Shown here in pieces: positions 51,899 through 52,345 of a stretch of 64,000 nucleotides of DNA. A model generated the notes under the pieces. The model made no database searches, had not been told where the DNA came from, and saw only the letters and a program-made list of their open reading frames with translations. How positions within the stretch are numbered: position 1 is the stretch's first letter; each line of letters opens with the position of its first letter. The DNA lies in IMG/VR virus record IMGVR_UViG_3300022661_000054; one strand, written 5' to 3'. The translations under genes were made by a program, and so were the position numbers. The stretch comes from a virus. Its lineage: Duplodnaviria > Heunggongvirae > Uroviricota > Caudoviricetes.

Positions 51899-52345
51899 TT
51901 AACCTTCAACTACCTGCACAGTAATAGTTGCCTGCACATCGTTAAATAGCTTTGCCTTAATCTTATAAGTGCCGAAAGCTTTAATAGGACTTTCCATAGA
52001 AAGCTTTTTCTTATCTACTTCTAAGTTATATTCCTGTTTAAGCTGCTGCGTAATTTCTTTTGCAGTAATAGCTCCGTAGAGTTTATTATCCACGCCAGCT
52101 TTACGTTTAAGTACGAGAGTAATAGTTTCTAGCTGTTTAGCAGTTTCTACTGCGGCAGCCTTTTCTATATCGTACTTATGCTGTTTTGAAGCTTCTCTAC
52201 CTCTTAGCTCATTCAGTGCTTCTGCATCTGCCGCAATAGCAAGTTTTTTCGCAAACAAGTAGTTTCGAGCGTATCCGTCGGATACATCAACTACCTGGTC
52301 CTTCTTACCTTTTCCTTTAACATCTACAAGTAAAATAACCTTCAT
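51899..52345 (-). CDS. rplI: Ribosomal protein bL9
   Basis: [36 protein letters not shown]... is a canonical L9 N-domain. Length is 148 aa with a helical linker and a C-terminal domain. Confidence 0.9.
   Translation of the reverse strand: [148 protein letters not shown]

Follow-up and report, generated by a model that had tools for sequence, protein, structure and literature searches.

We have identified a complete gene for ribosomal protein bL9 in the genome of a tailed phage. The gene occupies positions 51899-52345, on the minus strand, of a 64,000-nucleotide stretch of DNA (the window) from the IMG/VR virus record IMGVR_UViG_3300022661_000054 (Caudoviricetes), and its product is a canonical, full-length bL9 with N-domain, connecting helix and C-domain. 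For the statements on its identity and evolution, taken alone, our confidence is very high. The reading that we favour, with a probability of roughly 0.6, is that phage L9 is a genuine functional bL9 orthologue, an accessory protein of tailed jumbo phages of about 220-230 kb that would join host ribosomes and preserve reading frame and ribosome spacing.

Identity, fold and phage location of L9

The coding sequence and the parts of its product, as delimited by Pfam, TIGR00158, alignment to Protein Data Bank (PDB) entries, AlphaFold2 and Foldseek, are as follows.

51899-52345, minus strand: phage bL9 coding sequence; ATG start at 52345-52343, TAA stop at 51901-51899; 148 codons, 148 amino acids
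Residues 1-40: N-domain
Residues 41-74: connecting helix
Residues 75-148: C-domain

A preliminary description of this DNA, made from its letters, had placed an open reading frame (ORF) here, and the N-terminal residues it quoted agree exactly with the translation; the strand, which it did not state, is minus. On the opposite strand of the same interval there is no overlapping ORF of at least 40 amino acids. The Pfam family Ribosomal_L9_N (PF01281) matches residues 1-47 with 74.6 bits (cutoff 20.7; model positions 1-47 of 47) and Ribosomal_L9_C (PF03948) matches residues 64-147 with 91.5 bits (cutoff 23.2; model positions 2-86 of 86), and the NCBIfam equivalog TIGR00158, "L9", scores 141.7 bits against a cutoff of 58.6 (E = 2.3e-41; model positions 1-147 of 148). 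In a PDB sequence search, residues 1-147 aligned without gaps to L9 of B. subtilis (7qgu_X, E = 1.6e-30), and the alignment to G. stearothermophilus L9 (1div) is likewise gapless; the connecting helix is therefore of canonical length.

The predicted structure agrees with this assignment. An AlphaFold2 model built on 77 diverse L9 sequences reached a mean predicted local distance difference test score (pLDDT) of 93.5 and holds two globular domains apart on one long alpha-helix, the arrangement by which a bL9 is recognized. Its beta-beta-alpha-beta N-domain (strands at 2-5 and 18-20, helix at 23-30, strand at 36-38) is followed by the long helix at 41-74 and an alpha/beta C-domain. In Foldseek, the model superimposed on ribosome-bound T. 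thermophilus L9 (5v8i_1I) with a template modelling (TM) score of 0.92 and a root-mean-square deviation of 1.6 A, and on 1div with a TM score of 0.88; L9 of the leading ribosome in a B. subtilis collided disome (7qv1_X) was also among the top structural matches (TM 0.90). The preliminary description had named the lack of a C-domain on structure prediction as grounds for giving up the assignment, and the domain is present both in the sequence (Pfam) and in the predicted structure (AlphaFold2, Foldseek). A model built from members of the phage clade only (35 sequences; pLDDT 79.9) had a badly modelled N-domain and was replaced by the one from the diverse alignment; it too matched L9 chains only.

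Thirty-eight alignment columns are at least 80% conserved in 59 cellular L9s, and phage L9 keeps 35 of them, the exceptions being G87N, I108L and V131A. The preliminary description proposed the retention of conserved rRNA-contact residues in the N-domain as a check, and the columns kept in this rRNA-binding domain include G13, K14, G24, Y25, A26, N28, L30 and A36. In comparison with cellular bL9 of gut Clostridia and of B. subtilis and G. stearothermophilus, the phage protein has the same length (146-149 amino acids), the same domains and the same helix length, with TM scores of 0.88-0.92. Thus, the claim that a canonical, full-length L9 is encoded by a phage is borne out by Pfam, TIGR00158, the predicted fold and the phage context.

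That context is extensive. All 91 genes of the window lie on the minus strand, with a coding density of 92.5% and a GC content of about 0.36; the tRNA and Rfam scans found no tRNA and no Rfam RNA in the window, and Pfam and PHROGs identified no cellular housekeeping gene there other than L9. At E <= 1e-8, 39 PHROG families were matched, and the window genes include those for a tail-fibre protein, lysins, methyltransferases, a D12 DNA methyltransferase, a dNMP kinase, HNH, CotH and a glycosyltransferase. The 10 kb beyond each end of the window add an Amidase_3 protein, a 923-amino-acid CHAP/Phage_lysozyme2 protein, an Mtd_N-domain protein and a DNA ligase, so that at least 75 kb of contiguous phage-type genes surround L9. 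Independent assemblies from ENA, JGI and Logan contain the identical gene with identical neighbours on at least 24 contigs, and at least 17 collection blocks hold it on contigs of 0.2-1 Mb, for example of 220,249, 220,267 and 220,378 bp, from which we infer a complete phage genome of about 220 kb. Relatives of its neighbour genes are classed as viral in IMG/VR. The gdpP (DHH/DHHA1) - rplI - dnaB context of cellular L9 is absent here; the flanks are p137 upstream, and an AldoII-like gene and a T4-type RNA ligase gene downstream. The genome that encodes L9 is viral, and neither adjoining host DNA nor contamination accounts for the gene.

An artefact would have some precedent, be it a chimeric assembly, a viral bin contaminated with bacterial DNA, or a replicon that is a plasmid or otherwise non-viral. 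Most L9 matches by tblastn in the "phages" collection of GenBank, at most 47% identical, fall on short unannotated "Bacteriophage sp." contigs that resemble bacterial carry-over and were set aside as uninformative. A scan of 2.9 million IMG/VR contigs with an L9 profile from the 77-sequence alignment returned two loci, of which one is in a cellular DHH-L9-DnaB context and the other is credibly viral. Capsid, portal and terminase genes were not seen within the roughly 75 kb inspected. However, repeated recovery of the same gene and context from separate assemblies, including contigs of about 220 kb, is hard to reconcile with any of these explanations; diverged relatives keep phage neighbours, and the flanks are phage-type, not gdpP and dnaB. 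We therefore give an artefact next to no weight.

Origin, selection and spread

In a scan of cellular L9 that took one genome per GTDB species, the nearest cellular sequences were at most 53% identical to phage L9, and the best were all from uncultured gut Clostridia (Candidatus Avispirillum and unnamed Eubacteriales), where the gene sits in the classical Bacillota order gdpP (GGDEF_GdpP-DHH-DHHA1) - rplI - dnaB. Identity to gut Clostridia L9 is 46-53%, and to solved Bacillota L9s 39-42%. A phmmer search of 1.84 billion cluster representatives (50% clusters) gave as its top full-length match, at 71%, the representative of the phage clade itself, and the next full-length match was at 53%. With no full-length cellular match above 53%, there is therefore no close cellular donor on record. 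The phmmer matches that lie in between, at 54-79% (for example P0123, P0133 and P0180), are truncated or chimeric, and in the three that were read the L9 part is of the clade type. In P0123, residues 1-103 of a clade-type L9 run into a LuxR-type helix-turn-helix tail, a combination that may reflect a chimeric assembly, a frameshift in the gene or a genuine fusion; the truncation in P0133 and P0180 is of a similar kind.

A neighbour-joining tree was built from 14 phage sequences and 59 cellular ones, the latter a sample biased by pattern-based retrieval. The phage sequences formed a single clade in 199 of 200 bootstraps, and this clade branched from within the gut-Clostridia group. The GC content at third codon positions (GC3) of phage L9 is 0.302, close to that of the window genes (0.290 +/- 0.068), versus 0.47-0.75 in the nearest cellular L9 genes. 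Phage L9 thus differs from cellular rplI in its flanks, in GC3 and in the clade-specific replacements G87N and P32A. Because donor distance, monophyly and the GC3 match agree when taken together, these results indicate that rplI was captured once, long ago, from a gut Clostridia-type bacterium and then diverged within the phage lineage.

Since its transfer, phage L9 has been under purifying selection. By the Nei-Gojobori method, applied to the 91 pairs of 14 distinct coding sequences of the clade, the median ratio of nonsynonymous to synonymous divergence (dN/dS) is 0.12 (range 0.06-0.22) at a median dS of 1.2, with values of 0.07 for the N-domain, 0.11 for the helix and 0.16 for the C-domain. 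A word-indexed protein search found more than 120 protein clusters (at 90% identity) that are 79-100% identical to the query and nearly all 148 amino acids long, and the ORF is intact, at 147-150 amino acids, in 129 of 130 clade sequences. Where flanks could be read, L9 at 72-100% identity stands among homologues of p198, p140, p137, the AldoII-like gene, p55 and the Rnl1-type ligase gene, and these syntenic L9-carrying relatives include contigs of 219 and 229 kb. L9 is also better conserved than several of its neighbours: it is 85% identical in genomes where the AldoII-like protein is 71% and the RNA ligase 69% identical.

The signal for translation initiation is conserved as well.

52350-52359, minus strand: Shine-Dalgarno-like site AAAGGTAAGG, 4-13 nt upstream of the ATG, read from the sequence

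All 13 distinct upstream regions in the clade have an AAAGG(T/A)G-type motif about 7-9 nt ahead of the ATG, even where the upstream gene differs.

These data bear on the possibility that L9 is a neutral passenger, that is, recently captured host DNA without function for the phage. Phages do pick up host genes randomly, the slot that holds L9 is variable and the gene is absent in some relatives. Against this stand the lack of any cellular L9 closer than about 53% among the 1.84 billion representatives, the amelioration of GC3 to the phage value, a synonymous divergence of about 1.2 under the constraint just described, the intact ORFs and the conserved ribosome-binding site, which together make a passenger highly improbable. 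For the same reasons, L9 is not the recent host-derived fragment with a disrupted ribosome-binding site that the preliminary description had listed as a way in which it could be wrong.

Predicted role on the host ribosome

On the ribosome, the N-domain anchors bL9 close to the E site and the L1-stalk base. Cells without bL9 show more frameshifting, hopping and miscoding and come to depend on EF-P; in collisions, ribosomes that lack it come one codon closer together and hold on to the E-site tRNA. Moreover, bL9 lowers the frameshifting of its own ribosome (PMC6815119). In cells, where polysomes are tight, L9 in its extended form stretches from one ribosome to the factor-binding site of the adjacent one, thereby buffering collisions (PMC9534751), and in B. 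subtilis the disome interface includes bL9 of the leading ribosome, next to the region where MutS2 binds (PMC10897456). That L9 suppresses frameshifting and bypassing, as the preliminary description states, accords with its documented roles in frame maintenance, collision behaviour and polysome spacing (PMC6815119, PMC9534751). Furthermore, bL9 is one of the ribosomal proteins that are bound loosely and can be exchanged, which is the kind that viruses carry by preference; for phage bS21 and bL12, entry into E. coli ribosomes has been demonstrated (PMC6375957).

Based on this background, a phage ancestor would have captured rplI once from a gut Clostridia-type bacterium, and the copy would have been inherited and possibly exchanged among relatives. 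During infection, L9 would be expressed from a unit with the AldoII-like gene and p55 and dock by its highly conserved N-domain where bL9 normally sits, at the base of the L1 stalk, exploiting the fact that bL9 is peripheral, exchangeable and non-essential. The phage protein would then supplement or replace host bL9, maintaining or raising L9 occupancy of 50S subunits, and its rigid helix and C-domain would curb frameshifting and hopping and prevent neighbouring ribosomes from packing too tightly where phage mRNAs are densely loaded. As every ribosomal feature is conserved, incorporation into the host 50S subunit is the most economical reading. Expression, entry into ribosomes and a benefit to the phage are what the sequence leads us to infer. 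The preliminary description added that phage-borne ribosomal proteins are thought to bias translation toward phage mRNAs, which for L9 is a hypothesis. To our knowledge, L9 has no known role in mRNA selection.

Several observations weigh against a functional orthologue that serves on host ribosomes. The first is the replacement G87N (codon at about 52087-52085, minus strand), since the glycine at this position of a C-domain loop is near-invariant (at least 90% conserved in diverse L9s), and asparagine is found in 93% of 130 clade sequences; together with the neighbouring R88K, it turns the loop AG.DGRLYG into AGVDNKLYG in the phage clade. Secondly, the cellular sister group has a dN/dS of 0.037 by the same method, so that selection on the phage gene is about three times weaker, a difference that is approximate given the saturation of many sister-group pairs. 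Thirdly, compatibility with the 23S rRNA site of the host would have to be read from an N-domain that is about 77% identical to that of the nearest cellular L9. The virion genes missing from the inspected stretch, as given above, count here as well.

The distribution of L9 is a further point of this kind. In IMG/VR, contigs of 49-299 kb with the AldoII-like gene (57-74% identity) also have the RNA ligase gene and p140/p198 homologues, but no L9. In such contigs other genes directly abut the AldoII-like gene, as a p140 homologue does in locus L137, and neither a single-sequence scan nor the scan with the 77-sequence alignment found a clade-type L9 anywhere in IMG/VR. In a tree of AldoII-like proteins, L9-less loci interleave with L9-carrying ones. 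The slot upstream of the AldoII-like gene is hypervariable (L135-L138, at about 5000-6000 of each locus) and may hold L9 with or without p137, a 459-amino-acid ORF whose product is a probable flavoprotein, a 132-amino-acid ORF, or the p140 homologue. The variability of the slot and the interleaving in the tree therefore argue that L9 is an accessory gene that has been lost or recombinationally exchanged repeatedly. It appears to be beneficial enough to stay intact where present and non-essential to this type of phage; since close relatives dispense with it, any benefit is likely to be conditional.

Dispensability in relatives, selection that is more relaxed than on cellular L9, and the G87N change would also suit an extra-ribosomal role, in which the two RNA-binding domains serve RNA regulation or the titration of a host factor. 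That parts of L9 can be repurposed is shown by Mycobacterium phage 32HC, where the N-domain is fused to unrelated sequence (PMC6375957). However, one would not expect a protein with a new function to keep its entire ribosomal architecture, and in the phage clade the N-domain, a helix of unchanged length and the C-domain are all under purifying selection. With 35 of 38 conserved columns kept and a deviation of 1.6 A from ribosome-bound L9, we regard this role as unlikely.

Another possibility is that phage L9 does enter ribosomes but has been selected to alter the interface between them, either to evade collision sensors and rescue factors of the MutS2/SmrB type or to tune programmed frameshifting. 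The position of bL9 beside the MutS2 region at the disome interface (PMC10897456), with the disome chain 7qv1_X as a top structural match, is in keeping with this, as is the derived G87N with R88K at a near-universal glycine of the C-domain. The C-domain is somewhat more basic than its cellular counterparts (charge +3.5 versus a mean of +1.3 +/- 2.2), the slot occupied by L9 is accessory and variable, a frequent location for anti-defence genes, and RNA-repair genes that would protect translation lie nearby. On the other hand, the charge difference is within about one standard deviation, and the other fixed differences between phage and cellular L9 are conservative; Pro32 of the cellular sister group is mostly alanine in the phage clade. 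Identity to cellular L9 is about 0.77 in the N-domain, 0.45 in the helix and 0.41 in the C-domain, and this profile equals that of cellular pairs at the same overall identity, so that unusual divergence of the helix or C-domain was ruled out. No defence system is on evidence as reading bL9.

We thus consider selection on the interface improbable, though not negligible. In its most specific form, phage L9 would be a specialized variant that displaces host bL9 and changes the contact between ribosomes through G87N/R88K and the more basic C-domain, for which we see only an outside chance. If it were true, heavily loaded phage mRNAs would escape collision-sensing rescue or abortive infection, or phage recoding sites would be tuned; the protein would be the first viral effector at the inter-ribosome interface, and its sporadic presence in a variable slot would reflect an arms race with particular hosts. 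The conserved architecture of phage L9 leads us to prefer an ordinary bL9 that works on host ribosomes.

Genome surroundings and known phage ribosomal proteins

The features that adjoin L9, all on the minus strand, are listed below together with the RNA-repair genes.

52394-52807, minus strand: p137, upstream neighbour, 137 amino acids; no Pfam match, and found only in some L9-carrying relatives
52372-52401, minus strand: tentative promoter-like site, ATGACT, 18-nt spacer and TATAAT with TG extension (TGTTATAAT, 52380-52372)
50732-51883, minus strand: AldoII-like gene, 383 amino acids, 15 nt past the L9 stop; Pfam PF00596, 1.2e-7
50562-50729, minus strand: p55, 55-amino-acid ORF that closes the putative L9 / AldoII-like / p55 unit; 52-87% identity in relatives
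50521-50555, minus strand: terminator-like hairpin directly past p55, with a 14-bp stem of which 7 pairs are G-C, then a T-rich tract
47685-48833 and 37806-38831, minus strand, and one further PF09414 ORF: RNA-repair genes

The promoter-like site lies within the 48-nt gap between the upstream gene and L9 and has 10 of 12 matches with the TG present, the -35 element being weak. Such sites number 26 in the region versus 28.1 in shuffles, so they are not enriched, and among the relatives only about half have a TGTTATAAT-like element. Because the count is not above chance and conservation is only partial, a sigma-70 promoter of its own for L9 is kept as tentative. The gene for p137 is 91-93% identical in three relatives (L005-L007) and absent in other L9-carrying ones. 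In most L9-carrying relatives the AldoII-like gene adjoins L9, with which it is probably co-transcribed, and it is present also in relatives without L9. Its product has a C-terminal class II aldolase/adducin-like domain and an N-terminal half of no known type; homologues at 33% identity and 96% coverage occur in 15 Prevotella Lak megaphage genomes, and the family looks specific to huge phages.

A hairpin of different sequence with a T-run stands at the position equivalent to that past p55 in L005, an 85%-identical relative. L9, the AldoII-like gene and p55 would thus form the end of a transcription unit. Further perfect hairpins with T-rich tracts lie on the coding strand in intergenic gaps at 54956-54986 and 48912-48942 (both minus strand); all three stems are of 13-14 bp, and the three hairpins look like boundaries of transcription units. 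L9 itself sits in a block of small ORFs without assigned function, together with a methyltransferase and RNA ligases, and it may plausibly lie "among early genes", as the preliminary description has it.

Within about 15 kb of L9, an RNA-repair set comprises a T4 Rnl1-type RNA ligase, a PF09414/phrog_548 RNA ligase and an RlaP-type nucleotidyltransferase (phrog_388), which suggests a defence of tRNA or the translation machinery against host nucleases. The ligases and the RlaP-type enzyme would fit a broader investment in keeping translation running, although they are no proof of it. Another auxiliary gene encodes a full-length FolD, methylene-tetrahydrofolate dehydrogenase/cyclohydrolase (29738-30598, minus strand; phrog_7320, E = 4e-116), an enzyme that touches the supply of formyl-tetrahydrofolate and hence purine synthesis and fMet-tRNA formylation. 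Two very large ORFs have almost no database matches (9236-16990 and 24143-28201, both minus strand); the products, one of 2584 amino acids with LRR_5 repeats and the other of 1352 amino acids, are presumably virion or tail-fibre proteins.

At one end of the window, at 66-1046 (minus strand), an M23 peptidase with S-layer-homology (SLH) domains is encoded, and the Amidase_3 and 923-amino-acid CHAP/Phage_lysozyme2 proteins lie in the flank (L131, 11020-18351). This set of lysis and tail-lysin genes suggests that the host is Gram-positive and has an S-layer, and the Mtd_N-domain protein near the lysin genes may be the target of a diversity-generating retroelement. The hosts are probably Shine-Dalgarno-using Bacillota (Clostridia) with an S-layer, an assignment whose sole bases are the L9 phylogeny, the conserved Shine-Dalgarno site and the SLH-domain lysin. 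In INPHARED, megablast with 24 kb of the window and tblastn with a 937-amino-acid window protein returned no match, so that no close sequenced relative of this phage is in that collection.

The preliminary description had counted bL9, along with bS21 and bL12, among the ribosomal proteins reported from metagenomic phages. For S21 and L7/L12 this holds, since Al-Shayeb et al. 2020 found S4, S1, S21 and L7/L12 in huge phages (PMC7162821). For bL9 it does not: Mizuno et al. 2019 recorded it once, in the cultivated Mycobacterium phage 32HC (AHJ86298), and bL9 was not among the ribosomal proteins of their viral metagenomes (PMC6375957). Of bL9, the 86-amino-acid 32HC protein retains only the N-domain and a portion of the helix, and unrelated sequence takes the place of the C-domain (PMC6375957). 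It resembles the window L9 as a phage-encoded bL9 homologue that keeps the N-terminal rRNA-binding domain; however, 32HC is a 51-kb siphovirus of an actinobacterium with the N-domain only, whereas the window L9 is full length and belongs to a jumbo phage of about 220 kb and a large clade.

Like phage bS21 and bL12, phage L9 is a single peripheral, exchangeable ribosomal protein that was captured from a host, became fixed in a lineage and is under purifying selection. The sites of action differ: bS21 takes part in initiation at the 30S platform and bL12 acts at the factor stalk, whereas bL9 works at the base of the L1 stalk in frame maintenance and inter-ribosome spacing. Incorporation into ribosomes has been demonstrated experimentally for phage bS21 and bL12 (PMC6375957), and for phage bL9 it is so far a prediction.

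A second viral L9 came from the profile scan of IMG/VR. The 114-kb contig IMGVR_UViG_3300045988_097401 (L134) encodes, at 4581-5024 on the plus strand, a full-length L9-like ORF of 148 codons between a YqaJ-type recombinase gene and a Thg1-like tRNA-His guanylyltransferase gene. This L9 is 30% identical to the window L9, is of the Mollicutes/Bacilli type (DGYGSFLI motif) and lies in an unrelated genome, and it probably reflects a separate capture of rplI by a phage. In PHROGs v4 no family is matched by the window L9, and the literature searched (full text, with subscription-only papers outside its scope) held no phage-encoded bL9 besides the 32HC fragment; apart from Mizuno et al. 2019, it yielded a paper on bS21 in Flavobacterium. 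Within that literature, the window L9 appears to be the first well-supported, full-length and clade-conserved phage bL9 to be documented.

Virus-encoded ribosomal proteins are an accepted category dominated by bS21 and bL12, and a complete bL9 under selection across a widespread clade of jumbo phages adds a component to the translation parts that phages carry. Phage L9 looks ordinary in every respect that could be measured; what makes it interesting is the genome that encodes it, the length of time over which it has been retained, its patchy distribution and the experimental handle that it offers on bL9 function. The clade provides natural material on the role of bL9, a non-essential yet near-universal protein, in the form of a diverged L9 that presumably still works on a foreign ribosome. 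In addition, close relatives with and without L9 allow a comparison of frameshift sites, ribosome load and host range.

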